Source of the DNA: Pseudodesulfovibrio mercurii
GTDB lineage: Bacteria; Desulfobacterota; Desulfovibrionia; Desulfovibrionales; Desulfovibrionaceae
Assembly: GCF_000189295.2 (NCBI RefSeq)
Contig: NC_016803.1
Coordinates: 1,440,001 to 1,472,000, forward strand
DNA length: 32,000 bases
Direction: 5' to 3'
Positions 1,318-23,691 of this stretch are shown here, in pieces (position 1 is the stretch's first letter; the number at the start of each line of letters is the position of its first letter). A model generated the notes under the pieces. It saw nothing but the letters and a program-made list of their open reading frames with translations. It made no database searches and had not been told where the DNA came from. Both the position numbers and the translations under genes were made by a program.

Positions 1318-2382
1318 CTATTCCAGGCCCTGCTGCATCATGAACCGGAACACGGTCTCCACGAACTTGCCGGAGACCACGTCCGCCAGGGCGAAGTGCG
1401 GCATGTCGCCGGTCACCATGGCCCCGGTGTAGGCGAACCAGATTTCCGCCGAGATCTTGCCCAGGGCGGGGGTGATCAGCGTGCCCCACAGCCCTCCCGC
1501 GTCGCTCTGGTCCAGGCCGAAGGCGCGGCACTGGATGGGCCGGTGCTCGAAAAGCCGGCACTTGCCGTCGTCGAGCAGGGGGCAGACCGAGCCGGACTCG
1601 GACAGGCAGTACTCCCCGTCCTCCCCGTCGCCCAGGTCGCGGACCGCCCTGCGCTCGGCCTGGGCTGCGGCCACGGCCCGCTCAATGACCTTGAGGCGCT
1701 CCTCGCCGGACAGCTTCTGGTTGATGCGGTGGGAGATGTACACGGCCTCGGCCAGGGTCAGGGAGACCGGGGTGGTGCAGCACTGGCTGTGATCCAGGCC
1801 GCAGGCCAGGCCGTTGACCGCCTGGCCGCTCTCATCCACCCGCTGGACCAGCTCCATGTAATCGTTGAAGAAGGGCGACAGGTCCACCAGCCGCTTGAAT
1901 TCCAGGGACGGCTCGCGCACGGTCAGCTGGCCGGACTGCTTGCCGTACTTGCGGATGGTCCGCCACTGGACGAAGTTGGCGGGCTTGCTCTTGAGCTTCT
2001 TGAGGGCCTTCCCCGCGAGCTTGTGGCCCAGGCCGCGCCGCAGGAGATAGGCGTTAAGCACCGTGCCGGTCCGGCCGATGCCGTGGCGGCAGTGGATGAG
2101 CACCTTCTTGCCCAGGTAGATGGCCTCGTCGAGCCACTCCAGGGTCTTTTCCAGCTCGATCAGGCCCGGCGCCTCCTCGTCCTCCAGCGGCAGGTAGCGG
2201 ACCTCGAAGCCCGCGCCCTTCTCGATGTCGTGCAGGTCGCAGAACTCGCCGCACAGGTTGAGGATGGCGTCCACGCCCTGGGCGCGGATGGCCTCCAGTT
2301 GGGGATAGCTCATGGGCGCGCTGCCCACGCCGAGCTGGTCCGTGACCCAAGTGACCTTGTAGGCGAGATCGGTATCAGCCAT
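1318..2382 (-). CDS. Dual-specificity (Cys-based) protein/substrate phosphatase fused to a CxxCxxCC (YkgJ/UPF0153-type) putative Zn/Fe-binding domain
   Basis: P-loop VLIHCRHGIGRTG (HCxxGxxR) with an upstream acidic loop LPLEDEEAP. The C-terminal half has ACGLDHSQCC and CPLLDDGKCRLFEHRPIQCRAF, typical of the YkgJ family. The start overlaps the upstream stop (ATGGCTGA). Confidence 0.8.
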   Translation of the reverse strand: MADTDLAYKVTWVTDQLGVGSAPMSYPQLEAIRAQGVDAILNLCGEFCDLHDIEKGAGFEVRYLPLEDEEAPGLIELEKTLEWLDEAIYLGKKVLIHCRHGIGRTGTVLNAYLLRRGLGHKLAGKALKKLKSKPANFVQWRTIRKYGKQSGQLTVREPSLEFKRLVDLSPFFNDYMELVQRVDESGQAVNGLACGLDHSQCCTTPVSLTLAEAVYISHRINQKLSGEERLKVIERAVAAAQAERRAVRDLGDGEDGEYCLSESGSVCPLLDDGKCRLFEHRPIQCRAFGLDQSDAGGLWGTLITPALGKISAEIWFAYTGAMVTGDMPHFALADVVSGKFVETVFRFMMQQGLE

Positions 2383-4828
2383 CGCGCGACTCCGCGTCCC
2401 CGATGAACCGCTCGACCTCGGCGTCCACCTGTTCCTCGCTGTCCAGGCGCATGTCCATGAGCCGGGTCACGGCCATGAGGTAGCCCAGCCGCATGAGCAG
2501 TCGCCGGATGTCGTTCTCGGGCAGCCGGGCGCACTTGGCGTCGATCATGTCGCCCCGCGTGGCCGTCTCGAACCCGTAGCGGTCCAGGACCCGGCGGATG
2601 AACTCCAGCCGCAGGAGGCGCTGGTCGAAGCCCGCGCCGCCCCCCTTGAAGCGGAAATTGATGTAGTTGGCCCCCTGTTCCGGCCCGCAGATGGCATCCA
2701 CCACCGAGAAATGGTAGCCGAAGCGGACCATCAGATGCAGGTAGTCCGTGGAGATCAGCCCGTAGCTGGCCAGCAGCTTGGAATCGAAGCTGAAGATGCC
2801 GCCCGAGACCTTGTCGAACTCCTCCCAGTCCATGGCCGTCAGCCGCGAGGGCCACTGGACGCGCTCGTCGGACAGCCCGTACCAAAGGGCCCACATGGGA
2901 CCGCACTTGATGTCCTGGGGCGAGACGGTCTTGCCCTCGCCCGCGTTGGCGAAGAAGCCGCCGCCCAGGTCCAGGACGTACATGACCAGGGGCAGGCTGG
3001 TCTCCAGCCGCTTGGCCGAGTGCATGCCCCGCCCCTTCTTGTCCATGACGGCGAACATCTCGTTGACCGACTTCTCGTGGCAGAAGCGGACCACGTCGTG
3101 CAGGGACTTGCAGCCCATGGGGGTGAAGTCCTCGTCCTGAGGATCTGTCAGGTTCAGACGCACGGTCAGGGGCGCGACCTTGGCGTACTGGGCGATAACC
3201 CGCTCCGAGACCTGGCGGCCCTCCCGCGCGCGGGTCATGATCGCTTCCACGCAGCCGTCGTAGACGGCCCCGCCCGTGCCGTCCACGGTGACCAGCTGGC
3301 CGGGCTCGAGCCGGGCCTTGATGTCGCCGACCACCACGGGCACGCCCGATTCGCGGGCCACCGAGGCGAAATGGCTGGCCCGGCTGCCCGTGGCCGAGAT
3401 GACCCCGTTCATCCGGCCGATGAAGGTCAGCAGCGACGGCTTGAGGCTCGGGGTGACGACCACGGCCCCCTCGGGAATCTGGGCGATGCGCTCGCCCGTG
3501 GAGGCGAAATACACGGTGCCGCAGCCCGCGCCCGTGGAGGCGCGCTCCAACCCCTCGGCGATGGGACGCGTGGACACGGGCAGGGGGGCGTGCCCGGCCT
3601 GGGCCTCCTCGCGCTCCTCCTGGAGCGGGCGGGTCTGGAGGATGTACAGCTCGCCGGTGACGTCCTCGGCCCACTCGATGTCCTGGGGCCGCCCGAAGGC
3701 CTCCTCCAACCGCATGGCCAGCCGGCCCAGGCGGACCAGGGACGCCTCCGAGGGCAGGCCGCCCGCGTCCGGGGTGCAGCTCGTGTCCAGGCGCGGGGTC
3801 TCGTGGCGGGTCAGCACGGCCTTGTCCGGCGAGGTGGACCCGTCCACCAGGCCGTGGCCCAGGCCGTGCACGCCGTAAACGCCCATGGCCTCGCCCCCCC
3901 GGCAGTCCGGGTCGCGGGAGTAGAGCACTCCCGCGGTGTCCGCATCGACCATGGGGATGACCAGCACGGCCATGGCCGTCTCGCTGTCGGTCAGCCCGTT
4001 GGAGATGCGGTAGGCCACGGCGCGGGGGCAGTACTTGCCCGCCAGGACGCGTTTGTAGGCTTCGAGCACGTCGTTGGGCTGGACGTTCAGCTCCGAGGCG
4101 TACTGCCCGGCGAAGGATATCTCGCCGTCCTCGGCCAGGGCGCTGGAACGGACCGCGATGAGGTCGTCGCCGTCGATGATCTCCGAGACCCCGAAGCGGA
4201 TGCCCCGGGCGATCTCCTCCGGGACCTCGGCGGCCAGGATGAGCTCCTGCATCTCGGCGGTCAGCCGGGCCAGCAGGTCGCGGTCGCCCACGACCATCTG
4301 CCGCAGCCGCTTTTCGATCTCCTCGCCCAGGCCGTTGAAGTCGATGAAGTAGTTGAAGGCGTTGGCCGTGACCACGAAGCCGGGCGGCACCGGGATGCCC
4401 TCCAGGCTCTTGGCCCGCCCCAGGTTGGAGGCCTTGCCGCCCGCAAGCCTGGGCAGGGCGCCGGCCTCCTCCAGGGAGAGGATGTACGGCGGGCCCACCT
4501 CGGGCTGCTCCAGCTCGAGCGCCATGCGCACGTAGAAGTCGATCTTGCGGAAGTACTCGGGCAGGTCCATGTACCGGGTCGGGTTCATCTCCACCAGCTG
4601 TCCGGCCATGGTGGCCACGGCCGCGGACAAGCGGTTGGTCATCCAGACCGCGCGCTGGCGATCGGCCAGCCGCTTGCCGTAGAACATCTCCTCCAGGTCG
4701 GCGATCAGTTCCAGGGCCACGGCGTCGTGGGCAAGCAGGGACTTGAAGGCCTCGTACTTGCGCCGGAGCAGGGTGCCCGGAGCGAATACCTGGTAGGTCC
4801 AGTGCCTGAAGAGCTGTTTGAGATACAT
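2375..4828 (-). CDS. PEP/pyruvate-binding-domain dikinase family protein (PPDK_N ATP-grasp domain plus phospho-His swivel domain), substrate unknown
   Basis: LAGGKASNLGRAKSLEGIPVPPGFVVT, IAVRSSALAEDG and DIEWAEDVTGELYILQTRP mark the nucleotide-binding domain. GVISATGSRASHFASVARESGVPVVVG is the mobile domain with the catalytic His. About 120 aa at the N terminus and about 290 aa at the C terminus are unassigned. Confidence 0.85.
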   Translation of the reverse strand: MYLKQLFRHWTYQVFAPGTLLRRKYEAFKSLLAHDAVALELIADLEEMFYGKRLADRQRAVWMTNRLSAAVATMAGQLVEMNPTRYMDLPEYFRKIDFYVRMALELEQPEVGPPYILSLEEAGALPRLAGGKASNLGRAKSLEGIPVPPGFVVTANAFNYFIDFNGLGEEIEKRLRQMVVGDRDLLARLTAEMQELILAAEVPEEIARGIRFGVSEIIDGDDLIAVRSSALAEDGEISFAGQYASELNVQPNDVLEAYKRVLAGKYCPRAVAYRISNGLTDSETAMAVLVIPMVDADTAGVLYSRDPDCRGGEAMGVYGVHGLGHGLVDGSTSPDKAVLTRHETPRLDTSCTPDAGGLPSEASLVRLGRLAMRLEEAFGRPQDIEWAEDVTGELYILQTRPLQEEREEAQAGHAPLPVSTRPIAEGLERASTGAGCGTVYFASTGERIAQIPEGAVVVTPSLKPSLLTFIGRMNGVISATGSRASHFASVARESGVPVVVGDIKARLEPGQLVTVDGTGGAVYDGCVEAIMTRAREGRQVSERVIAQYAKVAPLTVRLNLTDPQDEDFTPMGCKSLHDVVRFCHEKSVNEMFAVMDKKGRGMHSAKRLETSLPLVMYVLDLGGGFFANAGEGKTVSPQDIKCGPMWALWYGLSDERVQWPSRLTAMDWEEFDKVSGGIFSFDSKLLASYGLISTDYLHLMVRFGYHFSVVDAICGPEQGANYINFRFKGGGAGFDQRLLRLEFIRRVLDRYGFETATRGDMIDAKCARLPENDIRRLLMRLGYLMAVTRLMDMRLDSEEQVDAEVERFIGDAESRDG

Positions 4829-4863: not shown

Positions 4864-5229
4864 CTATTCCCCGTCTCCGAGGACCTCGGCCACCTTGGCC
4901 TCCAGCTCCTCCTTGTTGATGGGCTTGACGCAGTATTCCTGGGCCCCGAGCCGCAGGGACTCGCGGGCGGTCTCCAGGGTGGGATAGCCGGTCAGCATGA
5001 TGGCCTTCATGTCCGGGTTGACCTTCTTGAGTTCCTCCAGGGCCTCCACCCCGGTCATCTTCTTGAGCTTGATGTCGAGGATGGCCAAGTCGATGGCCGT
5101 GGACGCCGCGTGCTTCAGGGCGTCCTCCTCCTCGGTGAAGTTCCAGACCTTGTGGCCCTTGCGCTCCAGGATGCGCTTGACCAGCATCCCGGCGTCGGAG
5201 ATATCGTCCAGTACCAATATATTCGCCAT
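4864..5229 (-). CDS. Stand-alone CheY-like response regulator receiver (no output domain)
   Basis: 121 aa. NILVLDD acidic pocket, phospho-acceptor context DLAILDIKL, then IMLTGY and CVKP (conserved T and K positions). Confidence 0.9.
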   Translation of the reverse strand: MANILVLDDISDAGMLVKRILERKGHKVWNFTEEEDALKHAASTAIDLAILDIKLKKMTGVEALEELKKVNPDMKAIMLTGYPTLETARESLRLGAQEYCVKPINKEELEAKVAEVLGDGE

Positions 5230-5232
5230 GAC

Positions 5233-7299
5233 CTACTCCTTTTCGGTCTCCCCGCTGTCCGGACCCTCGTGGTCCAGCGGGAGGTTCACTTCAAAAACCG
5301 TTCCGCCGCCCTCGGCCCCGCCCCGCGCCTGGGGGGGGAAGCCGAAGTCCTCGGGGACAGGGCTGGCGGCGTGGATATCGCCGCCGTGGTCCTCGATGAT
5401 CCCGAAGGAGACGGACAGCCCCAGACCGGTACCCTTGTCCACCGCCTTGGTGCTGAAGAACGGGTCGAAAATCTTCTTGAGCGCCTCCTCGGCGATGCCC
5501 GAGCCGTTGTCGGCCACCCACAGGGAGACGATGCCGCCCGGCGTGTCCAGCCGGGTGCGGATGAGGATGGTCCCGCCCTGGCCGCCCATGGCGTCGCGCG
5601 AGTTGGTCAGCAGGTTGATCCAGACCTGCTTGAGCTTCTCGGGGTCGCCGTAGATGATCGGGTAGCGGTCGTCGAGCTGGGTGACGATCTCCACCTTGTC
5701 GAGCTCCAGGGTGTGGCGCACCAGGGAGACCGCCTCCATGACCGAGTTGTTGAAGCACATCTCGCGCTTGGCGGACTGGGTCTGGCGGGAGAAGCCGAGC
5801 AGGTCGGCCACGATCTTCTTGCAGACCTGGGTCTGCTTCTCGATGATGGCCAGGTCCTGGTGGATCTGGCTGCCCGCCTCCACGTCCTCCTGCAACAGCT
5901 GGGCGTATCCCAGGATGATGCCGAGCGGGGTGTTGATCTCGTGGGCCACGCCGCCCGCGAGCAGCCCCAGTGACTCCATCTTCTGGGCCTGGATGAGCTG
6001 GTTCTCGTAGCGCTTGATGTCCGAGATGTCGCGGTCGGTCCGCAACAGGCCGTCGATGCGCCCCTCGTCGTTGAAGACCGGCACGCAGACCACGTGGAAC
6101 CAGTGCTCGCCGCCGCCGGTCTCGACCATGAGCTGGGTGTCCAGCCGCCGCCCGGACTGGAGGATGTCGCGGGCCGCCATGTGGCGCTTTTCGGCCTCGG
6201 CCTCGGGAAAGAGGTCGAAGTCGGTCTTGCCCTCGATCTCGGCCAGGGACATGCCCACGGACTCGGCGAAGCTCTTGTTGCACCCCCGGTAGCGCATGGT
6301 CGCGTCCACCAGGGAGACGCGGTCCGGGGAGACGTCCAGGATGGTCCGGGTCAGCCGCTGCTGGTCGCGCAGATTGCGCTCGGCGTCGCGCAGCTCCCCG
6401 ATGTGGCTCTTGAGGGTCATGGCCATGACGTCGAAGGTCTCGGCCAGGTCCTGAATCTCGTCGCCCGCGTTCTCGCGGTAGACCGGGCAATGGCGGCAGG
6501 ACTGCAGGCGGCACTGGAAGTTGCCCTCGTTGTTGCAGTCCGGGCACATGGTCCCGGCAATGTACCAGCAGCGCCGCCGGGTCTCGCCGTAGGCCGGGCA
6601 CTGGGGGGTGTTGCACTGCTGCTTCTCCCAGCAGTGGACGCCCCAGGTGGGGCCGGAAATGGTGTCCAGGTTGCCGGTCAGCATGTCCTCGGCGTGGGAG
6701 CGCAGCAGGGCCAGCCGGGCGGTCACGCGCCGGGCGAAGACCGTGCCGAGCGACGTGGCCAGGAACAGGGCCCCGGCGAACAGTCCGGCCATGAGGGTCA
6801 GCTGGCGCTGCACGGCCATCTGGATGCGCGACTGGGACAGGCCGATGCGCACGGTCCCGAGCCGCCCGTCCGAGACCAGGACCGGGGCCGCGAAGTCGTA
6901 GATGCGCCGCGAGCCGTCGGCCAGGAGCTGGATGTTCAGGGACTTGCCCGTGGCCACCTTGTTGGCGTCGATGAGGTCCACCGGGAACCCCTTCTGGAAG
7001 GTGTGGACCATGACGTAGCCGCTCTTGTCCTGGACAAAGGCGTAGATGACGTCCTCCACCGTGGACTGCTCGTCGACCATGTTCTTGAGCCGCAGGAAGT
7101 CGCGGGCGAGCATGGGGTCCACGGCGCGCACGGACAGCCCCTCGGCCAGGGCCGAGCCGCGCTTCTTGCTCTCCTCCACCAGGGAACTGGCGCTCATGCT
7201 GCCGACGAGCGGCAGGAGCAGCACGGCCATGCCCACCAGGATGGCGGACATGCCCAGGTTGAGCTTGGTGCGGAATCTGAGGCGGGGAAAGAAGCGCAT
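5233..7299 (-). CDS. Sensor histidine kinase: TM - extracytoplasmic domain - TM - HAMP with a 9-Cys insert - PAS - HisKA - HATPase
   Basis: Hydrophobic segments at aa 17-35 and 167-188. H-box GVAHEINTPL. N/G boxes NLLTNSRDAM, DNGSGI and GTGLGLS. Cys-rich segment at aa 223-271. Confidence 0.9.
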   Translation of the reverse strand: MRFFPRLRFRTKLNLGMSAILVGMAVLLLPLVGSMSASSLVEESKKRGSALAEGLSVRAVDPMLARDFLRLKNMVDEQSTVEDVIYAFVQDKSGYVMVHTFQKGFPVDLIDANKVATGKSLNIQLLADGSRRIYDFAAPVLVSDGRLGTVRIGLSQSRIQMAVQRQLTLMAGLFAGALFLATSLGTVFARRVTARLALLRSHAEDMLTGNLDTISGPTWGVHCWEKQQCNTPQCPAYGETRRRCWYIAGTMCPDCNNEGNFQCRLQSCRHCPVYRENAGDEIQDLAETFDVMAMTLKSHIGELRDAERNLRDQQRLTRTILDVSPDRVSLVDATMRYRGCNKSFAESVGMSLAEIEGKTDFDLFPEAEAEKRHMAARDILQSGRRLDTQLMVETGGGEHWFHVVCVPVFNDEGRIDGLLRTDRDISDIKRYENQLIQAQKMESLGLLAGGVAHEINTPLGIILGYAQLLQEDVEAGSQIHQDLAIIEKQTQVCKKIVADLLGFSRQTQSAKREMCFNNSVMEAVSLVRHTLELDKVEIVTQLDDRYPIIYGDPEKLKQVWINLLTNSRDAMGGQGGTILIRTRLDTPGGIVSLWVADNGSGIAEEALKKIFDPFFSTKAVDKGTGLGLSVSFGIIEDHGGDIHAASPVPEDFGFPPQARGGAEGGGTVFEVNLPLDHEGPDSGETEKE

Positions 7300-7305
7300 G
7301 CCCGC

Positions 7306-8244
7306 CTACCGGTCCAACTCGAGTTTCTCGGCCAGTTCCCTGACCGGATCGTAGTCGGCGTCCTCCGCCGGGATGATCCCCTGCATGCCCGCGACGCTCA
7401 GGATGGCCTGGTGTTCCGGGGTCTTCGTGTCCAGGGCGAACATGGCCTTGGCCACGGCGTCCACGATGGCCGGATCGAGGCCCTTGCGGGCCGCGTAGAC
7501 CCAGCCGGGATAGGAGCGGGTCTCGGCCAGGATGCGGATGGAGCCGAGGTCGATCTTGTTCCTGACCACGTCCAGGGTGCCCTTGCGGATGGTCCCGATG
7601 TCGTACACGCCCGCGTGCACGGCCAGGACGACCTTCTCCTGCTTGCCGCCCGGGCCGGGCGCGAAGTCCACGGTCTCGAAGTCGTGCAGATGGATATGGT
7701 GGTCGATGAACAACCCCAGGGGGAAGAGATAGCCGCCCGCGGAGTTCGGGTCCACGGCGATCCAGCGCTTGCCCCGGCAGTCGGCGATGGAGTTGATGGC
7801 CGCGTTGTCCGTGCGGGCGATGATCTGCCCCCGGAAGTTCGGCTCGCCCGAGGGCTCGATGACCCGGGCAAAGGCCTGGGCCCCGGCCTTGGCCAGACGC
7901 ACGTAGACGAACGGGTTGGAATAGGAGATGTCGATCTCCCCGCGCTCGACCATCTTGACGTGCTCCTCGAAGGTGTCGGGGAATATCTGCCTCAGGGGCA
8001 GGCCGGTGGTCTTGCGCAGGTATTCGAGCAGCTGCCGGTGGCGCTGGTAGGAGATGGTGTGGGAATACTGCGGCAGGTAGGCGTAGGTGATGGCGTCCAC
8101 CATGCGCGGGGCCACCAGGTCCTCGCGCTTGGACAGGTCCACCTTGACCGGCTTCTCGTCCGAGCAGCCGGAGGCCAGGACCAGCGGAAGAAGGAGCGCG
8201 AGCAGGACGGCCCAGGTGGTCATTCGGGTTTTTTTCATGGTCAT
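7306..8244 (-). CDS. PhnD-like (phosphate/phosphonate-type) periplasmic substrate-binding lipoprotein, likely sensor partner of the downstream kinase
   Basis: Signal peptide with lipobox LVLASGC. GEIDISYSNPFVYV, FRGQIIARTDNAAINSIADCRGKRWIAVDPNSAGGYLFP match the PhnD-like SBP pattern. Its stop lies 6 nt from the kinase start. Confidence 0.8.
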   Translation of the reverse strand: MTMKKTRMTTWAVLLALLLPLVLASGCSDEKPVKVDLSKREDLVAPRMVDAITYAYLPQYSHTISYQRHRQLLEYLRKTTGLPLRQIFPDTFEEHVKMVERGEIDISYSNPFVYVRLAKAGAQAFARVIEPSGEPNFRGQIIARTDNAAINSIADCRGKRWIAVDPNSAGGYLFPLGLFIDHHIHLHDFETVDFAPGPGGKQEKVVLAVHAGVYDIGTIRKGTLDVVRNKIDLGSIRILAETRSYPGWVYAARKGLDPAIVDAVAKAMFALDTKTPEHQAILSVAGMQGIIPAEDADYDPVRELAEKLELDR

Positions 8245-8415: not shown

Positions 8416-8928
8416 ATGGCATCCATATACACCATCCCCATGAGCCGGGCCGTGCTGGCCGCCTTTCTCGCGGTCATGGCCAGCGTGGCGGCCGTGGTGG
8501 CCTGGAGCTTCAATTCCGGCCTGACCTGGACGGCCATCTGCCTGATCGCCGTGGCCGGGCCGCTGGGCCTGTTCTACTGGTACATGCTCTACATCACGCC
8601 CAGGCGGGCCTCGGTGACCGTGTCCGACGAGGGCATCCTCCTGGCCGCGCCGCCGTTCGCCTCGGCGGTCATCCCCTGGGCCTCGGTGGAGAAGGTCTTC
8701 CCCGCCGATCTCAAGCGCGACGAATCCTTCCAGATCACCAAGACCCGCAAGTACATGTCCTTCGGCGGCTACAAGTCCGGCGTGGTCGAGGTCAAGGACG
8801 GCCGCGAGGCGGTCATCGTGGCCAACCGCAACGACGTGCTCTGCATCCGGACCGGGGAGCGGTTCTACCTCATCGGACCGGCCGACCTGTCCGGCTTCAC
8901 GGCGGCCGTGGAAAAGGTCGCCCCCTAG
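8416..8928 (+). CDS. Small membrane protein (two N-terminal TM helices plus a PH-like soluble domain), function unknown
   Basis: SD AAGGAG lies 7 nt upstream of the ATG. Two hydrophobic helices (AVLAAFLAVMASVAAVVAW, AICLIAVAGPLGLFYWYML) are followed by a roughly 100-aa beta-rich domain. Confidence 0.6.
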   Translation: MASIYTIPMSRAVLAAFLAVMASVAAVVAWSFNSGLTWTAICLIAVAGPLGLFYWYMLYITPRRASVTVSDEGILLAAPPFASAVIPWASVEKVFPADLKRDESFQITKTRKYMSFGGYKSGVVEVKDGREAVIVANRNDVLCIRTGERFYLIGPADLSGFTAAVEKVAP

Positions 8929-8955: not shown

Positions 8956-8980
8956 AAAGCCGCCCCGAGGGGCGGCTTTT
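8956..8980. terminator. Bidirectional intrinsic terminator between convergent genes
   Basis: AAAGCCGCCCC-GA-GGGGCGGCTTTT: a perfect GC stem flanked by an A-run and a T-run. Confidence 0.75.
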
Positions 8981-8995
8981 CCATTTTCGAAATCG

Positions 8996-9655
8996 CTAGG
9001 ACCCTTCGGGGACCGGCTTGCTCTCGACGAGCGCCGGCTTGTCCTTGCCGTGCCTCTTCCGGGACTGGGCGTAGCGCAGCTTGTCCTCCTCGCTGAGCAG
9101 ATCCGTGAAGGTCAGCATCTCGTCCCCGGCCTCGTTCTCCTTGACCCGCTGCTTGATGGTCCTGAAGACCGGCAGCCAGGGCTTGGAAAGGCTGAAGAGG
9201 TAGCGGACCAGGATGTAGGCCGGAATGAAGATGAAGGCCGGGCCCACCGACCCCATGAAGGGCACGGTGAAGTCCACCTCTGCGAAGCGGTAGAAGAGCC
9301 AGCCGATGGCGAAGGGAACCACCCACAGGGACGAGGCGAACAGGGCCATGCGGGCGAAGAAATTCTTGCCGAAGGCGTCGTTGGCCAGCGAGTTGCAGGC
9401 CTTCCAGGAGGTCTTGTCCTTGGCGCCCAGGGCGTGGACCGACATGTTGTGCTGGTCGATCATCTCGCGGTTCATGGTCGCGAAATGACGCTTGTTCAGG
9501 AAATAGACCCCGGCCATGCACAACTCGCCGATGACCGTGGCCGCCAGGCAGACCCAGAACAGCCCCACCGCAAACCCCACGTAGGGGTTGTCGCTGGTGC
9601 GGAAGGCCCAGATGAGCCAGGGATCGAGGAACTGATAGACGGTGGTACCGGTCAT
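8996..9655 (-). CDS. Integral membrane protein of unknown function, downstream of the TauE/SafE gene
   Basis: 219 aa with several hydrophobic helices (VGFAVGLFWVCLAATVIGELCMAGVYF, LFASSLWVVPFAIGWLFY, GPAFIFIPAYILVRYLF) and a charged C-terminal tail. Same strand as TauE, 66 nt downstream of it. Confidence 0.6.
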   Translation of the reverse strand: MTGTTVYQFLDPWLIWAFRTSDNPYVGFAVGLFWVCLAATVIGELCMAGVYFLNKRHFATMNREMIDQHNMSVHALGAKDKTSWKACNSLANDAFGKNFFARMALFASSLWVVPFAIGWLFYRFAEVDFTVPFMGSVGPAFIFIPAYILVRYLFSLSKPWLPVFRTIKQRVKENEAGDEMLTFTDLLSEEDKLRYAQSRKRHGKDKPALVESKPVPEGS

Positions 9656-9721: not shown

Positions 9722-10843
9722 TTAGATGGGCAGGGCGATCCCGAAGAAGCCCTTCAGGGTGTACTTCAGACCAACGTACACGGCCAGCACGATGAAGATG
9801 CGCTTCAGCCAGATATCCGGGATGTACTTGGAGGTCTTGGGGCCGATGATGGAGCCGATGACGATGCCGACGAGCTCGGCGCCGATCAGGGACCACTCGA
9901 CCGGAGTGGAGCGCAGGATCATGTAGGAGGCGATGGAGTTGACCATGCCGACGAAGACGGCCATGGCCGAGGTTCCGGCCACCAGGTACATGGGCAGGCC
10001 CGCCACGGAGGTCAGGAACGGCACCAGCAGGAAGCCGCCGCCGACGCCCAGGAAGGAGGCCAGGGCGGAGATGAAGAAGCCGCCGATGACCGGGATCAGG
10101 GGGTTGAAGGAGAACTCGACGCCGAAGAAGGTGAATTCGCAGGAGGTCGGGGTGAACTTCTGGACCTTCACGCCCATCTCGGCCATGTCGACGGTACCGC
10201 CGGCCTGCTGTTCCTTGACGGACTTCTGGAAGGCCTCGGCGGCCTTCTTGGCGGACTTTTTCTTCGCCTGGCCGGCCGGGGTGGTTTCATAGAAGAGGTA
10301 GCAGCCCAGGAAGAGGACGAACAGACCGAAGTAGCCGATGTAGGCCTTCAGGCTGATTTTGCCGGCGGTCAGCCAGGGCACCAGCCAGGAGCCGGACACG
10401 GAGCCGATGGCCAGGGCGATGCCCAGCGGCAGCACCAGACGGCCGGCCTTCCAGTAGTTGAAGGAGGACAGGGCCGCGGAGCAGCCGACCAGCCACTGGT
10501 TGGACACGCGGATGGAGTCGGTGACGACCTTGTTCAGCTTGGCGCCCTTGCCGAAGGAGCTGGCGTAGTCGCCCAGACCGTAGATGGTGATGTGACCGAC
10601 ACCGGCCATGATGCCGCCGAACGCGCCGACGGTGGAGAAGATCCAGCCTACCCAGATCGCCCACAGGAGACCGATGATGATGTTCAGCTGCGGACCGCCG
10701 GGAATGCCCAGATAGCCGGGCTCGCCGGTGGGTTTGGCTTCGGCGATGGCGTCGGCCAGACGGCTGGCCAGAGCGGGCTCGGCCATGAGGCAGACAGCCG
10801 CAACCAGGGCCAGCATCAGGAGAGTTTTCTTGGAACGTAACAC
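9722..10843 (-). CDS. TauE/SafE-family anion (sulfite/sulfonate-type) exporter
   Basis: Polytopic membrane protein with the two-repeat TauE/SafE pattern (GGIMAGVGHITIYGL... and GGGFLLVPFLTSVAGLP). I place the start at GTG 10843, preceded by GGAGGAGG with about 5 nt of spacing. The track's ATG at 10879 lies inside the IS element. Confidence 0.8.
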   Translation of the reverse strand: MLRSKKTLLMLALVAAVCLMAEPALASRLADAIAEAKPTGEPGYLGIPGGPQLNIIIGLLWAIWVGWIFSTVGAFGGIMAGVGHITIYGLGDYASSFGKGAKLNKVVTDSIRVSNQWLVGCSAALSSFNYWKAGRLVLPLGIALAIGSVSGSWLVPWLTAGKISLKAYIGYFGLFVLFLGCYLFYETTPAGQAKKKSAKKAAEAFQKSVKEQQAGGTVDMAEMGVKVQKFTPTSCEFTFFGVEFSFNPLIPVIGGFFISALASFLGVGGGFLLVPFLTSVAGLPMYLVAGTSAMAVFVGMVNSIASYMILRSTPVEWSLIGAELVGIVIGSIIGPKTSKYIPDIWLKRIFIVLAVYVGLKYTLKGFFGIALPI

Positions 10844-10865
10844 AGTTACCTCCTCCTCGGGAATA

Positions 10866-10873
10866 AAGTTAAA
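10866..10873. repeat. Left copy of the 8-bp target-site duplication AAGTTAAA
   Basis: Identical octamer at 13055-13062, directly abutting the IS terminal inverted repeats. Confidence 0.75.
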
Positions 10874-10951
10874 CGGCATTTTAAAAAATAATGTTGCTTT
10901 TGCCGAAAAAAGTCTAACTATTTAGTATGGACTAAAAGGAGGCAAAGCGCA

Positions 10952-11998
10952 ATGTCTATTCAGGCCGTTATCAACCAGTTCAGATCGTTGAATAAAGACC
11001 AGCAGGAAGCCTGCGCCCGCCGCATCGAAGCCTATCTCCACGAGCACATCGAGGGGTTGAAGGGGTTCAGGGATACCATCGTCGAGGCGCGTTTCGCTGA
11101 TGGCAGGCACTGCCCCAGGTGCGGAAGCGTCGATGTGAAGCGTTGGGGCGCGTACAGCGACAAGAACGCCTACATGGCCCGCCAGCGGTACATGTGCAAG
11201 GATTGCGGACGCACCTTTACCGAACTGACGGGGACGCCGATGGCGGGGACCCACAAGCCCGAGCTGTGGTCCCGCTACATCCGATGCATGATCGAGGGGT
11301 TGAGCCTTCCCCGGACCGCCAAGCGGCTCGAGATTTCCATCCCCACGGCCTTCTATTGGCGGCACAAGATCCTGTGTGGCCTGAAGGCGTTGCATGCCCG
11401 GGATATCCTGTCCGGCATCGTCGAGATGGACGAAACCTTTTTCGTCGAATCCAACAAGGGAAGCCGCAACCTGAAGCACCGTCCTCCGAGGAAGCACCGG
11501 GGCGTCGCACGGAAACGCGGTATCTCGAACGAACAAGTGGCCGTGTTGGTGGGGCTCAGCCGCGATGGTGACGTGTTAAGCCATGCCGCTGGCCGGGGGC
11601 GCTTGTCGGCCGATCAGGTCGCGCGGGCCATCGGCGGCAACATCATGCCGGACAGCACGCTTGTCACGGACTCCATGTCCGGCTTCGCCACCTACGCCAA
11701 GCGCGAGGGCATCCGGCATGTCCGCTTGAACAGCCGTCAGGGCGTGTACACCCAGGGTGTCCACCACATCCAGCACGTCAACAACTACCACGCGGGTCTC
11801 AAGGAATGGATGCGCCGGTTCTGCGGCGTGGCCTCGAAGTTCCTCGACCACTACATGGCGTGGTTCAACCTGTTGCGGATCGTGACCAAGCTGGAATCCA
11901 AGAGCAGGCTGGAGGAATTCTACCGTCAGGCTTGCCGCAAGACCGCCTATGCGCCCGTCAGGGACTTCCGGGCATTCAAGGTCGGCCAGGAGCCGTAA
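10952..11998 (+). CDS. IS1595-family (ISXO2-like DDE) transposase with an N-terminal zinc ribbon
   Basis: CPRCGS...CKDCGRTF zinc ribbon, then IVEMDETFF (first catalytic D), LVTDSMSGF, and HIQHVNNYHAGLKEWMRRF..VASKFLDHYMAWF, typical of ISXO2-like transposases. AGGAGG lies upstream. Confidence 0.9.
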   Translation: MSIQAVINQFRSLNKDQQEACARRIEAYLHEHIEGLKGFRDTIVEARFADGRHCPRCGSVDVKRWGAYSDKNAYMARQRYMCKDCGRTFTELTGTPMAGTHKPELWSRYIRCMIEGLSLPRTAKRLEISIPTAFYWRHKILCGLKALHARDILSGIVEMDETFFVESNKGSRNLKHRPPRKHRGVARKRGISNEQVAVLVGLSRDGDVLSHAAGRGRLSADQVARAIGGNIMPDSTLVTDSMSGFATYAKREGIRHVRLNSRQGVYTQGVHHIQHVNNYHAGLKEWMRRFCGVASKFLDHYMAWFNLLRIVTKLESKSRLEEFYRQACRKTAYAPVRDFRAFKVGQEP

Positions 11999-13840: not shown

Positions 13841-15931
13841 ATGGGTAAGGAATATGTAAAGAGCATTTGCGGCATGTGCTCGGTACGATGTCCCATTGAG
13901 GTCGAAGTGGTCGATGGCAAGGCGGAGTATATTCAGGGCAATCCCGATGCCGCGGGCATCATGGGCTCCCTGTGTCCGCGCGGCGCTGCCGGTACGGCCC
14001 TGACCTACGACGAGGACCGCCCGCAGTACCCCATGGTGCGCACGGGCAAGCGCGGCGAAGGCAAGTGGAAACGGGTGTCCTGGGACGAAGCCCTGGACTA
14101 CGTGGCCGACGAGCTGACCCGTATCCAGGAGACCTACGGCAAGAACTCGGTCCTGTTTTCGGACCGCGGCGGCCCGTTCCGCGATTTTTACCGCGCCTTC
14201 CTGCGCGGCATCGGCACGGCCAACTACAACAACCACGACTCGGCCTGCGCGCGCAACGTCCAGAACGCGGCCCTGTCCGTGTTCGGCTTCGGCCGCAAGG
14301 GCGTGTCCTACGACCTGAAGAACGCCAAGCACGTGGTGCTCCAGCAGCGCAACATCATGGAGGCCATCAACGTGGCCGAGGTGAACAACCTGTTCACCGG
14401 CATGGAGAACGGCGCCAAGCTGTCGGTCATCGACATCCGCGCCAACGTCCCGGCCACCAAGGCGGACAATTTCTTCATGGTCCGGCCCGGCACGGACTAC
14501 GCCTTCAACCTGGCCGTCATTCATGTCCTTATAAATAACGAGCTGTACGACAAGCAGTTCGTGGCCGACTGGGTCGAGGACTTCGACAAGCTTGTGGAGT
14601 TCGTCAAGCCCTACACCCCGGAGTGGGCCGAGGCCGAGACCGGCGTGCCCGCCGCCCGGCTGATCGACTTCTGCAACCAGCTGGCCGAGGCCGCCCCGAG
14701 CGTCCTGTGGCATCCCGGCTGGATGACCGCGCGCTACACCGACTCCTTCTACATGACCCGGACCATCTACATCATCAACTCGCTGCTCGGGGCCATCGGC
14801 GCCAAGGGCGGCCTGCCGTTCATGAACAAGCCGGGCGACGTGGGTGCCAAGGGGCTGAAGAGCTTCATGGAGCTCTATCCCAAGCCCGAGGGCAAGCGCG
14901 CCGACGGCGTGGGCTGGATGGATGGCCGCAAGCACTTCGACCAGGGCCCCGGCCTGGTCCACCTGGCCTACGACGCCGCGGTGGAGAAGAAGCCCTACCC
15001 CATCAAGGCGTACATCGTGCAGCGCCACGACCCGCTCATGGCCTTCCCGGACAAGAACGACGTCAAGGCCATGTGGGACGACATCGAGCTGCTGGTCTCC
15101 GTGACCTTCTCCTGGTCCGACACCGCCTGGAACGCGGACGTGGTCCTGCCCATCTCCCCGTACCTCGAGCGGGACGAGATTCTGATGACCAAGAACGGCC
15201 CCAAGCCCGCCTTCCAGGTGCGCAAACGGGCCATTCAGCCGGTCTACGACACCAAGGCCGTGTGGGAAATCTACGCGGGCCTGGCCAAGCGCATGGGTCT
15301 CAAGGAACTCGACTACACCAACATCGAGGACATCTGGAAGTTCCAGCTCGAGGGCACCGGCGTGACCATCGAGGACTTCGAGAAGACCGGCATCGTCTCC
15401 CTGGCCTCCGATCCCCTGTACAAGCCGGTCAAGGAGGGCTCCTTCAAGACCCCGTCCGGCAAGATCCAGATCATCGACGCCAAGCTGGAAGGCGACGGCA
15501 TGCCGTCCCTCAAACCCTATGAAGCGCCCGAACGGCCCCCGGCGGGCAAGTTCCGCATCACCTTCGGCCGCTGCGCCCTGCACACCCAGGGCCACACCGT
15601 GAACAACTCCCTGCTCTTCGAGCAGATGCCCGAGAACGTCCTGTGGATCAACACCAAGCGGGCCGAGGAACTCGGCATCGCCCAGGGCGAGTACGTGACC
15701 GTGTCCAGCAACGGCTACAACGGCCGGATCAAGGCGTTCGTCACGGACTTCATCCACCCCGAGGCGGTCTTCATGATCCACGGCTTCGGCCACGACCTGC
15801 CGTGCGAGTCCCGGGCCAAGGGCCGGGGCGTCGCCGACAACCTGCTCATGCCCAAGGGCATCAAGAAGTGGGATCATGGGGGCGGAGCCGTAGCCATGCA
15901 GGAACACTTTGTCTCTGTAAGTAAGGCGTAA
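13841..15931 (+). CDS. Molybdopterin (bis-MGD) oxidoreductase catalytic subunit, Psr/Phs/acetylene-hydratase-like clade, apparently cytoplasmic
   Basis: The N terminus MGKEYVKSICGMCSVRCPI carries CxxCxxxC, with a fourth Cys in GSLCPRG. RTGKRGEGKWKRVSWDEALDYVADEL is typical of MopB enzymes. There is no twin-arginine signal. AGGAGG lies 6 nt upstream of the ATG. Confidence 0.9.
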   Translation: MGKEYVKSICGMCSVRCPIEVEVVDGKAEYIQGNPDAAGIMGSLCPRGAAGTALTYDEDRPQYPMVRTGKRGEGKWKRVSWDEALDYVADELTRIQETYGKNSVLFSDRGGPFRDFYRAFLRGIGTANYNNHDSACARNVQNAALSVFGFGRKGVSYDLKNAKHVVLQQRNIMEAINVAEVNNLFTGMENGAKLSVIDIRANVPATKADNFFMVRPGTDYAFNLAVIHVLINNELYDKQFVADWVEDFDKLVEFVKPYTPEWAEAETGVPAARLIDFCNQLAEAAPSVLWHPGWMTARYTDSFYMTRTIYIINSLLGAIGAKGGLPFMNKPGDVGAKGLKSFMELYPKPEGKRADGVGWMDGRKHFDQGPGLVHLAYDAAVEKKPYPIKAYIVQRHDPLMAFPDKNDVKAMWDDIELLVSVTFSWSDTAWNADVVLPISPYLERDEILMTKNGPKPAFQVRKRAIQPVYDTKAVWEIYAGLAKRMGLKELDYTNIEDIWKFQLEGTGVTIEDFEKTGIVSLASDPLYKPVKEGSFKTPSGKIQIIDAKLEGDGMPSLKPYEAPERPPAGKFRITFGRCALHTQGHTVNNSLLFEQMPENVLWINTKRAEELGIAQGEYVTVSSNGYNGRIKAFVTDFIHPEAVFMIHGFGHDLPCESRAKGRGVADNLLMPKGIKKWDHGGGAVAMQEHFVSVSKA

Positions 15932-18489: not shown

Positions 18490-18698
18490 CCGTATTCCTC
18501 CCTGCCCGTGCGCCGGGCCGTCGGTCTCGTCGGTTGATCCCGGCTCACGGCCGGGCTGCAATGCAACATGCTCCGGGGTCGCCGCCGAACGTGCATCGCC
18601 CGGCGCGCCCTCCGTACCTGACAACATATACAGACATTTTTACGGAAATTCCACCGACGGTTTCATGCAACCCGCGCAAAATCGTCACCCAACCGTCA

Positions 18699-20829: not shown

Positions 20830-21612
20830 GGGAAAAATCAGAAGTTGAAGCCGCTACGCGGCGATTCGGGATGACGGGGTTCGCTCCGCCCCGGCGCCCC
20901 CCCTTTGCGCGGTCGGACAGGGCCTGGTTCAATTCGTCCGGACGACGCTGCGCGTCCACCAAATCCGTCAGGCGTTCCTTCCCTGGTCCTGTCGCTGCCG
21001 CCCCCCTGGGACATGCTTCGCCGTCCCCCTTTCTCGCTCTCACCCTCGCCCGGAAGGGATGCCCTGCAAGGGCTCCCGCCCCAGCGCACCCCCTTGTCCG
21101 ATGCCGCTCCAAAACGTGGCAAAATAGCGTCTCCGAGAAGTGCCTATACGGTGATGTTATTGGCAATTCTCATGCCAAAAACAATGTCATACAATACAAA
21201 ATAAATCATTTTTTGACACGGTGAATTTATTCAGATAGACTCTGTCAATGATTACAGACGATGCAGATAAATGAACGTTGTTTTTGATCTGTAACAAAAA
21301 GATAGAGAGATAATACAGTAATAAATCAACTGTTGCAGTTGCCACAATCTGATACAAAAAATTCTTACAGCAGATTGTGACTGTATCATCGACAAAACAA
21401 CATCATCTTCGGCTAAATCGCCAATTGTACATGCCACAGACCTCGAAATGCCATAGCGGACAGAAAACCCTGTCCAGCCCCGGACTGCGCTCGTCCACCC
21501 CGTGCGGACTTCGCGACCGGGTTCCCCTCTCCTGATCCATTTCGACAGCCTTTTTTTCCGACACTCCCCGCCCCCGGCGAGGGAGCGCGTCGTTACTTTC
21601 AACGGAGCAACC

Positions 21613-23666: not shown

Positions 23667-23691
23667 CCGCAATCGAATCCGAGGAGGTTCC

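Follow-up and report, generated by a model that had tools for sequence, protein, structure and literature searches.

In Pseudodesulfovibrio mercurii, a PpsA-like dikinase and a dual-specificity phosphatase (DSP) are encoded by overlapping genes whose pairing is not due to chance, because the phosphatase gene lies directly downstream of the dikinase gene in 67 of the 78 related loci with room for it and overlaps recur among them. The evidence supports functional coupling of the two proteins as a phosphoryl-adding enzyme and a Cys-P-loop enzyme, given the conserved synteny and overlap, two Rosetta-stone fusions, replacement of the partner by an unrelated Cys-phosphatase fold in a distant subfamily, and the opposite phenotypes of dikinase and phosphatase mutants of D. 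vulgaris (PMC4001038). The pair occupies the last two positions of a five-gene operon that, with a TauE permease and the small membrane protein beside it, is by synteny and domain content the orthologue of the "nitrate cluster" DVU0251-0245/Dde_0597-0605, and we tentatively propose that its products act on a transported oxyanion-type solute.

Organization and translational coupling of the gene pair

The window analyzed is a 32,000-nucleotide stretch of the P. mercurii genome (contig NC_016803.1, positions 1,440,001 to 1,472,000), and all coordinates refer to it. The genes and their junction are as follows.

2375-4828, minus strand: dikinase gene, 817 aa, PpsA-like dikinase with a swivel His and a new type of acceptor domain (equivalent of DVU0246/Dde_0604)
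1318-2382, minus strand: phosphatase gene, 354 aa, dual-specificity phosphatase with a Cys-rich tail
2375..2393, minus strand: coupling junction (GGAG 2390-2393, phosphatase ATG 2380-2382, dikinase TGA 2375-2377)

Both open reading frames and the 8-nt overlap described in the initial annotation were borne out at these positions. The shared sequence ATGGCTGA (2375-2382) belongs to the 3' end of the dikinase gene, read as ...CGC GAT GGC TGA, and to the 5' end of the phosphatase gene, read as ATG GCT GAT, and the phosphatase ATG is preceded by GGAG at a spacing of 7 nt. Of 69 pairs in related loci, 44 had a stop and start that overlapped by 1-20 nt and 57 had a gap of no more than 10 nt, with GGAG usually inside the dikinase 3' end; overlap length varied, the exact 8 nt being one of several. 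The overlap was originally taken to imply roughly stoichiometric co-expression. It supports co-translation but is by itself no proof of a 1:1 ratio, which is enforced in the two natural dikinase-DSP fusion proteins (P0294 and P0342).

Domain architecture of the dikinase

4514..4828, minus strand: N-terminal helical bundle, residues 1-105 (AlphaFold helices 2-15, 17-49, 57-81, 89-104)
3629..4447, minus strand: ATP-grasp nucleotide-binding domain (PPDK_N), residues 128-400, GGKA and VRSSAxAED motifs
3269..3478, minus strand: swivel phosphohistidine domain, residues 451-520, His486 codon 3371-3373, motif GSRASHFASVARE
2378..3136, minus strand: C-terminal acceptor domain, residues 565-817, alpha/beta fold

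Pfam matches were obtained to PPDK_N (E=1.7e-68) and to the PEP-utilizers swivel domain (E=6.8e-16), and Foldseek matched the ATP-grasp domain to PpsA, RPH and PPDK. Residues K132 and R227-S228-S229-A230 of the ATP-grasp domain are invariant, as is the catalytic His486 (20 of 20 homologues). Because it has a complete ATP-grasp domain and a swivel His domain of the PpsA/PPDK/RPH type, the enzyme almost certainly uses ATP to form His486~P, releasing AMP and Pi. Its likeness to PpsA/PPDK extends to the order of ATP-grasp and swivel His domains, the GGKA, VRSSAxAED and SH..ARE motifs, and the best sequence and fold matches; it differs in that an unrelated alpha/beta domain of ~250 aa takes the place of the PEP/pyruvate TIM barrel, a helical bundle is added at the N-terminus, and the position of the regulatory Thr, two residues ahead of the His, is occupied by Ala.

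Fold comparison had been suggested earlier for the two ends of the dikinase. The N-terminus is a helical bundle in the AlphaFold model, and Foldseek gave nothing better than E=0.03 with TM<0.25 for the C-terminal domain. The bundle had no match in Pfam, carries the conserved residues W10, P17, Y25, F28 and D35, and is kept in all dikinase subfamilies, with or without a neighboring regulator. The acceptor domain is a new fold that matches no described family, Pfam and the PDB (phmmer and profile searches) having likewise returned nothing, and it is present in 1102 clusters. Invariant His, Asp, Arg and Glu residues abound in it; a divergent alignment of 17 sequences gave H577, D578, R581, H584, E585, S688, Y696, H706, N721, GG729-730, R740 and D792 as invariant.

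Several small-molecule dikinases use the same catalytic cassette to phosphorylate or activate acceptors other than pyruvate. Phenylphosphate synthase is one, and rifampin phosphotransferase, HpeI and PigC/RedH are others; the ATP-grasp part of the P. mercurii enzyme matched the Rph and PigC/RedH NCBIfam models and the PDB structures of RPH (5hv1, 5fbs) and HpeI (9goj). However, scores fell far under the family cut-offs (Rph 178 vs 999), and the acceptor domains of these enzymes, phenylphosphate synthase included, are not detectably related to that of the P. mercurii dikinase. We know of no enzyme among them that has a Cys phosphatase as its partner or is controlled by a two-component system.

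Domain architecture of the phosphatase

1933..2355, minus strand: DSP-type Cys phosphatase domain, residues ~10-150, HC98RHGIGR104TG, general-acid D68, Cys98 codon 2089-2091
1318..1932, minus strand: C-terminal Cys-rich domain, residues ~151-354, Cys-rich core ~190-290

The catalytic domain matched Tc-R-P (E=7.6e-18), DSPc (E=1.8e-12) and also PTP-SAK in Pfam, and its nearest solved structures in the PDB were archaeal and bacterial PTPs and DUSPs; the glucan phosphatases SEX4, LSF2 and laforin were absent among the matches at E<=0.01. Residues D68, C98 and R104 were invariant in 16 of 16 homologues, so that in the homologues aligned neither enzyme shows the loss of the catalytic His or Cys that was raised at the outset as a possible objection. 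Seven Cys residues of the tail are invariant (194, 201, 202, 259, 267, 275 and 285), and the domain is a putative metal or Fe-S site; it scored 20.7 bits against Pfam CxxCxxCC, under the cut-off of 23, and the JGI name for the protein is Fe-S-cluster containing protein. The Cys-rich domain is missing from a 171-aa phosphatase partner in one related locus (L088).

Neighboring genes and correspondence to the nitrate cluster

9722..10879, minus strand: TauE/SafE (TSUP) permease, 385 aa, Pfam TauE E=3.6e-25 (DVU0251/Dde_0598 equivalent)
8996..9655, minus strand: membrane protein without family, 219 aa (DVU0250/Dde_0600 equivalent)
8956..8979, both strands: terminator-like bidirectional hairpin, 10-bp stem, from a pattern scan only
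7306..8244, minus strand: periplasmic PhnD/PtxB-like substrate-binding protein, 312 aa, first operon gene, Phosphonate-bd E=3.1e-61 (DVU0249 equivalent)
5233..7299, minus strand: sensor histidine kinase, 688 aa, Pfam sCache_3_2, HAMP, PAS, HisKA and HATPase_c (DVU0248/Dde_0602 equivalent)
4864..5229, minus strand: receiver-only response regulator, 121 aa, without output domain, Response_reg E=1.5e-23 (DVU0247 equivalent)

The operon runs from the binding protein through the histidine kinase, regulator and dikinase to the phosphatase with spacings of 6, 3, 35 and -8 nt, the kinase gene thus lying 6 nt from the binding-protein gene and 3 nt from the regulator gene. Against the NCBIfam models of PhnD and of the selenate binding protein, the binding protein of the operon stayed under the cut-offs, and no ABC partner genes adjoin it. 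The central loop of the TauE permease carries the conserved motif FTFxGVEFxFNP. The 219-aa membrane protein had no Pfam match and always adjoins TauE; the homologues that tblastn found immediately follow TauE in those loci. The terminator-like hairpin appears to close both the TauE-membrane protein unit and a convergent bPH_5 gene. A phosphoglucomutase gene was also observed 12 kb away; it is not syntenic, and an IS1595 transposase gene lies between.

The identification with the nitrate cluster rests on likeness of gene order and domains. Both loci hold TauE, a hypothetical membrane protein, a PtxB/PhnD-like protein, a PAS/HAMP kinase, a receiver-only regulator, a protein with PPDK_N and mobile domains, and a DSP, and an Oleidesulfovibrio locus with this order and these domains also has DUF169 upstream (cf. 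Dde_0597). P. mercurii differs in that the opposite-strand bPH_5 gene lies between the five-gene operon and the permease unit. The cluster controls nitrate sensitivity in sulfate reducers (Korte 2014, Front Microbiol 5:153, PMC4001038): Tn mutants in DVU0251, 0250, 0249, 0247 and 0246 were nitrate-resistant, the DvH phosphatase mutant (DVU0245) remained sensitive (fitness -6.04), and the G20 phosphatase mutant, unlike that of DvH, had a fitness of +2.08 in nitrate. G20 cluster mutants were mildly sick on thiosulfate, given there as unpublished data, and in DvH the cluster is active although its histidine kinase gene is a pseudogene (PMC4001038).

Conservation across genomes and distant subfamilies

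Synteny was surveyed at species level over 80 related genome loci, with counts taken over loci with room. In 58 of 77 the gene immediately preceding the dikinase encoded the receiver-only regulator; the binding protein and histidine kinase were syntenic with the dikinase in 49 of 68, and TauE with the small membrane protein in 40 of 64, Desulfopila-type loci among them. Identity across genera ranged over 61-96% for the regulator, 56-96% for the DSP domain and 43-95% for the dikinase. The Desulfopila-type loci have neither the two-component system nor the phosphatase but retain the dikinase next to TauE and its membrane protein, and thus tie the dikinase to the permease.

Neighborhoods of distant members, each known from a single metagenomic contig, likewise included the regulator-dikinase arrangement. 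Other family members adjoin unrelated oxyanion carriers, namely YedE with TusA (TIGR04112, 477 bits), ChrA and GDT1/TerC. In one distant subfamily the overlapping partner is an ArsC-like LMW-PTP, unrelated to the DSP, with CTGNAVRS, a C-x6-C pair and a thioredoxin-like DF domain. These partners matched ArsC models, under cut-offs, and keep the C-x6-C pair. In thioredoxin-coupled ArsC (LMW-PTP fold, PAPS reductase logic) a P-loop Cys (CX5R) enzyme with extra redox-type Cys acts on an oxyanion. The P. mercurii phosphatase, with its CX5R domain and attached seven-Cys domain, may resemble ArsC in logic only, its fold being that of a DSP and not of an LMW-PTP. One distant dikinase subfamily carries a ConA/lectin-like C-terminal extension with a weak, sub-cut-off match to Glyco_hydro_59_C (26.3 bits).

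Proposed function and alternative interpretations

We favor, at somewhat less than even probability, a module under two-component control that phosphorylates and processes a transported oxyanion-type solute, an acceptor suggested by genomic context and residue types. The pair would be the enzymatic end of the operon: the phosphoryl of His486~P would pass to a small anionic acceptor, oxyanion-type and sulfur- or chalcogen-like (perhaps thiosulfate-like in P. mercurii), that may enter the cell through the co-clustered permease, and the co-translated Cys-P-loop enzyme (DSP plus Cys-rich metal domain) would remove or further process it. The PhnD-like protein and histidine kinase would sense the external anion, and the receiver-only regulator may act through protein contact as a switch for the dikinase or for the balance between the two enzymes. 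The intact catalytic residues, tight five-gene packing, synteny over the 80 loci, fusions, ArsC-like partner, oxyanion-carrier neighbors and nitrate/thiosulfate genetics all argue for this interpretation. Counting against it are the mostly phosphoprotein substrates of the DSP and LMW-PTP families, the receiver-only regulator, with which a pure signaling switch also fits, the activity of the DvH cluster despite its kinase pseudogene, and the differing fitness of the G20 and DvH phosphatase mutants, which makes dikinase/phosphatase antagonism inconsistent between species.

The initial annotation rightly called the substrate pure inference and mentioned signaling, and a protein phospho-switch is a close rival, though an unlikelier one. 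Here the dikinase would be an unconventional protein kinase opposed by the DSP and, under control of the regulator, the two would set the phosphorylation state of a protein that gates anion uptake. Candidate targets are the TauE loop, which holds an invariant Thr, the small membrane protein, the regulator and the dikinase. The operon does hold a complete two-component system whose regulator lacks an output domain, the nearest solved phosphatase relatives are protein tyrosine and dual-specificity phosphatases, and the unusual conservation of regulator and DSP domain relative to the dikinase is expected of proteins with several partners. LMW-PTPs, moreover, classically partner bacterial tyrosine kinases; those found here, however, resemble ArsC-type thiol reductases more than Wzb-type phosphatases. 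To our knowledge all characterized ATP-grasp and swivel-His enzymes act on small molecules or glucans, never on proteins, which favors the oxyanion acceptor over a protein one. In addition, because about 12 charged or polar residues of the acceptor domain are invariant while the adjoining transporters (TauE, YedE, ChrA, MFS) are unrelated, a common small ligand class fits better than differing protein targets, and Desulfopila-type loci hold the dikinase and TauE without a nearby phosphatase or regulator. Opposite phenotypes of the DvH dikinase and phosphatase mutants (PMC4001038) favor the switch. They weigh against an improbable PTS-like relay, in which phosphoryl would move from His486 to Cys98, as an EIIB-like carrier, and on to solute at the permease in ATP-driven group translocation; the phenotypes of the same sign in G20 phosphatase and dikinase mutants favor it, as do the co-translation or fusion of the pair, its link to permeases, and the swivel His domain, a module also of PTS Enzyme I. 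His-to-Cys transfer and LMW-PTP-like EIIB folds do exist in the PTS. Nevertheless, the invariant general-acid Asp68 resembles that of hydrolytic phosphatases, and a relay leaves the conserved, separate acceptor domain without a role.

The pair had originally been likened to plant glucan-water dikinase (GWD) with SEX4/laforin. The coupling of a phosphoryl-adding and a Cys-P-loop enzyme with intact catalytic residues stands, and the two superfamilies are indeed those of GWD/PWD and of SEX4, LSF2 and animal laforin, but a bacterial glucan (glycogen) phosphate cycle is very improbable: CBM20, CBM45 and CBM48 are absent from both proteins in Pfam, the domains are ordered as in PpsA and not as in GWD, the phosphatase belongs to another clade, the conserved neighbors are a two-component system and anion permeases with no glycogen genes, and the published phenotypes concern nitrate and thiosulfate (PMC4001038). 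The lectin-like extension of one distant subfamily and the phosphoglucomutase gene could be cited in its favor, the latter set off by its transposase and lack of synteny. Least credible is the ordinary annotation of a PEP synthase beside an unrelated phosphatase; PpsA models gave the top family scores and many database records read "pyruvate, water dikinase", yet the score was 266 bits against a PpsA cut-off of 598, with only the ATP-grasp and swivel parts matched, the PEP-utilizers_C TIM barrel is missing by sequence and in the model, and the conserved partner coupling and fusions speak against it.

Korte 2014 (PMC4001038) reported phenotypes only, for genes termed poorly annotated, and the domain analysis, fusions and family survey presented here go beyond it. 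Under the oxyanion-module interpretation, wild-type nitrate sensitivity may arise because nitrate uses the system for entry or is handled there, which would account for the protection gained when the permease, regulator or dikinase is lost.

Gene organization of the dikinase-phosphatase cluster

The initial annotation had described a dikinase gene and a dual-specificity phosphatase (DSP) gene overlapping by 8 nt, and both open reading frames and their junction were confirmed in the window. The phosphatase has 100% identity to the NCBI protein of Pseudodesulfovibrio mercurii, the species of the window.

Features of the dikinase-phosphatase cluster (window coordinates, strand, feature)
9722-10879, reverse strand, TauE permease, upstream of the five-gene operon on the same strand
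8996-9655, reverse strand, 219-aa membrane protein, upstream of the operon on the same strand
8956-8979, bidirectional hairpin at the end of the TauE and membrane-protein unit
8416-8928, forward strand, bPH_5 (bacterial PH-domain) membrane protein, separating the TauE unit from the operon
7306-8244, reverse strand, binding protein, first gene of the five-gene operon
5233-7299, reverse strand, histidine kinase with HisKA and HATPase domains (Pfam)
4864-5229, reverse strand, receiver-only regulator (Pfam)
2375-4828, reverse strand, dikinase, 817 aa
1318-2382, reverse strand, phosphatase, 354 aa
459-1313, forward strand, 284-aa conserved hypothetical protein, convergent with the phosphatase gene with 4 nt between the stops

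The stop/start junction reads ...GGAGTCGCGCGATGGCTGA in the window sequence; the dikinase 3' end (GAT GGC TGA) and the phosphatase 5' end (ATG GCT GAT) have 8 nt in common, and a GGAG lies 7 nt 5' of the phosphatase ATG. Successive gaps in the five-gene operon, of which the phosphatase gene is the last, are 6, 3, 35, and -8 nt. The kinase and regulator have the makeup of a two-component system, and the translated receiver shows DD8-9, the D of ILDIKL, the T of MLTGY, and the K of VKP. A sigma-70 scan found no promoter upstream of the operon, and an Rfam search of the whole window returned no riboswitch or other family. The TauE permease has a central insertion of ~60 residues (residues ~200-260) within which FTFxGVEFxFNP was invariant in all 42 cluster-linked homologues. 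The bPH_5 gene was present in only 15 of 80 related loci, those of Pseudodesulfovibrio and a few other Desulfovibrionaceae. Downstream of the phosphatase gene, the 459-1313 frame was 84% conserved versus 73% for the opposite frame and is therefore a real gene; its product had no Pfam or NCBIfam match. The last part of an ABC permease gene (47-487) runs into this gene, which was found in the closest relatives only.

Domain architecture of the dikinase

Pfam matched the dikinase to PPDK_N (PF01326; E = 1.7e-68) and to the PEP-utilizers mobile domain (PF00391; E = 6.8e-16), and its ATP-grasp domain and swivel phosphohistidine domain with the His place it in the PEP-utilizing, or "X, water dikinase," superfamily. 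When it was aligned with 19 full-length homologues (48-90% identity), K132 (GGK132) and R227, S228, S229, E233, and D234 (R227-SSAxAED) were invariant, as was the catalytic His486 of the swivel domain (motif GSRASHFASVARE) in all 20 sequences. To judge from these residues, the protein is a functional-looking His-swivel enzyme. It reached no NCBIfam equivalog cut-off (PpsA, 266 versus 598 bits; Rph, 177.7 versus 999), and sequence matches to known dikinases in NCBIfam and the PDB spanned residues ~115-565 only. The AlphaFold model (pLDDT 83) has four parts, namely a helical bundle at the N terminus (residues 1-105), an ATP-grasp and a swivel domain, and an alpha/beta domain at the C terminus; its Foldseek matches included 2ols and 5hv6 (E ~1e-16 to 1e-19), and the whole model reached PpsA, RPH, and PPDK via the ATP-grasp and swivel modules alone. 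The helical bundle was also considered as an HPt-like module, a role dismissed since the dikinase alignment contained no conserved His there.

The C-terminal acceptor domain (residues 565-817) is new and resembles no described domain. PEP-utilizers_C (PF02896) was absent from the dikinase by Pfam, and the domain was modelled by AlphaFold as beta4-alpha-beta2-alpha2 with no TIM barrel; Foldseek matches of this model included neither a barrel nor any RPH chain. The last 267 residues had no PDB match by phmmer with a single sequence or by a 17-sequence profile. A dedicated AlphaFold model of the domain, in which residues 551-600 were badly modelled, yielded Foldseek matches at chance level (best E = 0.03, TM < 0.25), and RecJ/DHH, T3SS chaperones, and DCoH were discarded as fold relatives on the same figures (E >= 0.03, TM < 0.25). 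The structure prediction and fold comparison that the initial annotation had suggested for the two terminal domains of the dikinase yielded models of both, a helical bundle and an alpha/beta domain, but no fold match for the C-terminal one. At 50% identity, an exhaustive search counted 1102 clusters with the acceptor domain, which has a near-constant position in host proteins of 800-880 aa. Even among the most distant members, the polar set H577, D578, R581, H584, E585, S688, Y696, H706, N721, GG729-730, R740, and D792 was invariant; we infer that it marks a site of catalysis or ligand binding and not a docking surface.

Phosphatase partners of the dikinase family

The phosphatase matched Tc-R-P, DSPc, and PTP-SAK in Pfam (E = 7.6e-18 to 4.4e-10), and its PDB matches were PTPs and DUSPs. 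The Tc-R-P match raised the reading of an anti-phage defence system or toxin, which was rejected since PADLOC had no match for either the dikinase or the phosphatase. An HCX5R(S/T) P-loop with an upstream general-acid Asp assigns the protein to the Cys-based DSP/PTP superfamily, and in an alignment with 15 homologues (59-87% identity) the P-loop H97-C98-RHGIG-R104-T105-G and the general acid D68 were invariant in 16 of 16 sequences. Loss of the catalytic His or Cys in orthologues, a possibility raised in the initial annotation, was not observed, with His486 of the dikinase kept in 20/20 sequences and Cys98 of the phosphatase in 16/16. Seven Cys of the C-terminal half were likewise invariant among the 16 sequences, and the protein scored below threshold against the metal-binding domain CxxCxxCC/YkgJ (PF03692) (20.7 bits; gathering cut-off, 23). 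The catalytic site of this Cys phosphatase is intact and is accompanied by a seven-Cys domain.

A long dikinase subfamily (~1040-1085 aa) carries a C-terminal ConA-like extension, and an LMW-PTP-fold gene abuts or overlaps the dikinase start, upstream, in two of the six long-subfamily contigs read (those of the metagenomic proteins P0386 and P0385).

ArsC-like LMW-PTP genes adjoining or overlapping the 5' end of a long-form dikinase gene (contig, coordinates)
L083, 787-1491
L089, 1272-1961

These LMW-PTP-fold partners match thioredoxin-type ArsC models and retain CTGNAVRS and the C-x6-C pair; the L083 protein additionally carries, at its N terminus, a thioredoxin-like "DF family (seleno)protein" domain that scored 83 bits (cut-off, 70). 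A GST gene lies downstream of the dikinase gene in L089. Because both a DSP and an LMW-PTP were found beside members of the dikinase family, two unrelated Cys-P-loop folds have been recruited to it, and each usually carries an extra Cys-based domain.

Conservation of the pairing

Gene context was compared across 80 species-level genome loci with a dikinase relative, each count being restricted to loci with sufficient flank. The phosphatase gene lay directly downstream of the dikinase gene in 67 of 78 loci and the receiver-only regulator gene upstream of it in 58 of 77, while the PhnD-like binding protein and histidine kinase were present in 49/68 loci and the TauE permease and ~200-aa membrane protein in 40/64. 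Of 69 dikinase-phosphatase gene pairs, 44 had a stop/start overlap of 1-20 nt, and in 57 the gap did not exceed 10 nt. In two proteins from metagenomes, P0294 (1252 aa) and P0342 (1205 aa), the dikinase, DSP, and Cys-rich parts are naturally fused, and both fusion genes are preceded by binding protein, kinase, and regulator genes. The order regulator, dikinase, DSP recurred in further distant members. A 171-aa DSP that lacks the Cys-rich tail is the partner in one case, where its gene and the dikinase stop overlap by 4 nt. Maridesulfovibrio loci have the dikinase and phosphatase alone; those of Desulfopila and Desulforhopalus combine the dikinase with TauE and the membrane protein, and neither a two-component system nor a phosphatase is close by. 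Overall, the dikinase-phosphatase coupling looks obligate.

Correspondence to the nitrate cluster

By gene order and domain content, the window cluster matches the "nitrate cluster" DVU0251-DVU0245 of D. vulgaris Hildenborough (DvH) and Dde_0597-Dde_0605 of Oleidesulfovibrio strain G20; the window genes have the seven-gene order and domains given in Table 3 of PMC4001038. A locus from the genus of G20 (L056) reads DUF169, TauE, hypothetical, binding protein, kinase, regulator, dikinase, DSP, DUF169 preceding TauE just as it does at Dde_0597 in the G20 cluster. Transposon mutants in the TauE, membrane protein, binding protein, regulator, and dikinase genes are nitrate-resistant (Korte et al. 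2014, PMC4001038), the DVU0251 (TauE) mutant having a fitness of 11.44, a 2780-fold enrichment in nitrate (PMC4001038). The phosphatase mutant was still sensitive in DvH (fitness -6.04) and mildly positive in G20 (+2.08) (PMC4001038). DVU0248, the histidine kinase gene, is annotated as a pseudogene in DvH (PMC4001038, Table 3), yet regulator and dikinase mutants have strong phenotypes, so the cognate kinase is dispensable for the module to operate. The authors deemed the cluster genes poorly annotated and proposed a thiosulfate transporter that leaks nitrate inward, citing mild thiosulfate defects from unpublished data (PMC4001038).

The cluster is thus already known from the literature as a genetic locus. 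Within the searchable literature, its locus tags were found in Korte 2014 alone and in no later paper, and a search there for a characterized dikinase-phosphatase system found none. No description was found in that literature of the acceptor domain, the size of the family, the fusions, the recruitment of two P-loop folds, or the range of transporters for oxyanions, all of which appear to be new.

Transporters beside other family members

Members of the dikinase family adjoin transporters of sulfur, selenium, and chromium oxyanions.

Anion carriers beside other family members (contig, coordinates, feature)
L081, 1465-4235, YedE-family putative selenium transporter (TIGR04112, 477 bits), TusA-like gene, and Se/S-carrier protein, upstream of a fused dikinase-DSP operon
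L090, 4303-12461, stretch with a ChrA chromate transporter directly beside a long-form dikinase
L088, 3387-4604, ChrA chromate transporter directly beside a long-form dikinase

The neighbours in L081, where the same stretch also has a weakly Carb_kinase-like gene, suggest a selenium or sulfur link in that lineage. In L090 an MFS transporter gene is immediately upstream of the dikinase gene, with ChrB and an HD-domain gene a few kilobases farther upstream, and GDT1 and TerC lie beside another family member.

Remainder of the window

Other features of the window (coordinates, strand, feature)
10952-11998, forward strand, IS1595-family transposase (DDE_Tnp_IS1595 and zinc ribbon), adjoining the TauE gene
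13841-15931, forward strand, molybdopterin oxidoreductase
17131-18627, reverse strand, phosphoglucomutase/phosphomannomutase
19100-20203, forward strand, SBF-family symporter
21502-24720, forward strand, glycine-betaine-type ABC transporter
25151-27670, reverse strand, sigma-54 activator, 839 aa, first ~480 residues without a Pfam match, leaving the sensor region unassigned
27976-29607 and 29546-31978, reverse strand, large ORFs without family matches, which may be genes or not

GC content is 53-58% at 12-14 kb, 16-17 kb, and 21-22 kb versus ~65% elsewhere in the window, which suggests that the low-GC stretches past the transposase are acquired DNA. The molybdopterin oxidoreductase, phosphoglucomutase, SBF symporter, and ABC transporter genes were not syntenic with the cluster in related loci.

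Candidate functions of the pair

The initial annotation had likened the pair to plant glucan, water dikinase (GWD) plus SEX4/laforin. Both superfamilies and the add/remove logic are indeed common to the two systems, and this much of the analogy held; the glucan substrate class did not, every testable glucan-specific feature being absent. Pfam found no carbohydrate-binding module (CBM45/CBM20 for GWD/PWD) in either protein, and the His domain, which precedes a C-terminal nucleotide-binding domain in GWD, follows the ATP-grasp domain in the window dikinase. None of the PDB sequence matches of the dikinase at E <= 0.01 was named glucan, water dikinase, in a PDB set that may hold no GWD, and SEX4, LSF2, and laforin structures were not among the phosphatase matches at the same threshold. 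The glucan-phosphatase signature is C-zeta-A-G-psi-G-R, whereas the window phosphatase reads C-R-H-G-I-G-R, with His at the Ala position. The conserved neighbours of the pair provide no glycogen gene context, and the phosphoglucomutase gene was dropped as such because it is non-syntenic and lies past the IS element. A glucan cycle is accordingly very improbable, and a plain PEP synthase, with no PEP-utilizers_C, no TIM barrel, and 266 bits against a cut-off of 598, is hardly credible. A PTS-like relay, in which the phosphoryl group would pass from His to Cys, we regard as quite improbable.

Our preferred reading, held tentatively, is that the acceptor is an oxyanion-type solute of the adjoining permease: the dikinase would transfer a phosphoryl group onto a small solute brought in by the permease, the Cys-P-loop partner would remove or process that group, and the receiver-only regulator would control both enzymes through protein contact. 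The main rival, which we consider somewhat doubtful, is a permease-gating protein phospho-switch. Such a switch accords with what DSP and LMW-PTP enzymes usually act on and with the signalling context of the operon, but not with the known chemistry of the dikinase family or with a polar acceptor site conserved despite unrelated adjoining transporters. A search for phospho-acceptors in the TauE loop and its membrane partner found one invariant Thr, within FTFxGVEFxFNP, which is suggestive as a candidate acceptor but not discriminating. Unlikely, in our estimation, is a hitherto unrecognized two-step route for chalcogen-type oxyanions (such as thiosulfate, sulfite, or selenite): the dikinase would make a phospho-anhydride of the oxyanion (ATP -> AMP + Pi), by the same logic as selenide, water dikinase and APS, and the P-loop Cys would attack the activated centre and displace phosphate. 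The attached Cys-rich, putatively metal/Fe-S domain (in the ArsC-like version, the thioredoxin-like DF domain) would provide reducing or sulfur-transfer chemistry of the kind found in ArsC and PAPS reductase, the DSP would then be a reductase or transferase on a phosphatase fold, and nitrate toxicity would stem from a futile cycle of nitrate phosphorylation.

Implications

Nitrate is an industrial means of souring control, and the fitness effect of this cluster is among the strongest in model sulfate reducers. The identity of the acceptor would set a new reaction class in the PpsA superfamily, whether a novel kind of protein kinase or a novel oxyanion-activating enzyme, and would also explain both the non-transcriptional output of receiver-only regulators and the poisoning of sulfate reducers by nitrate.
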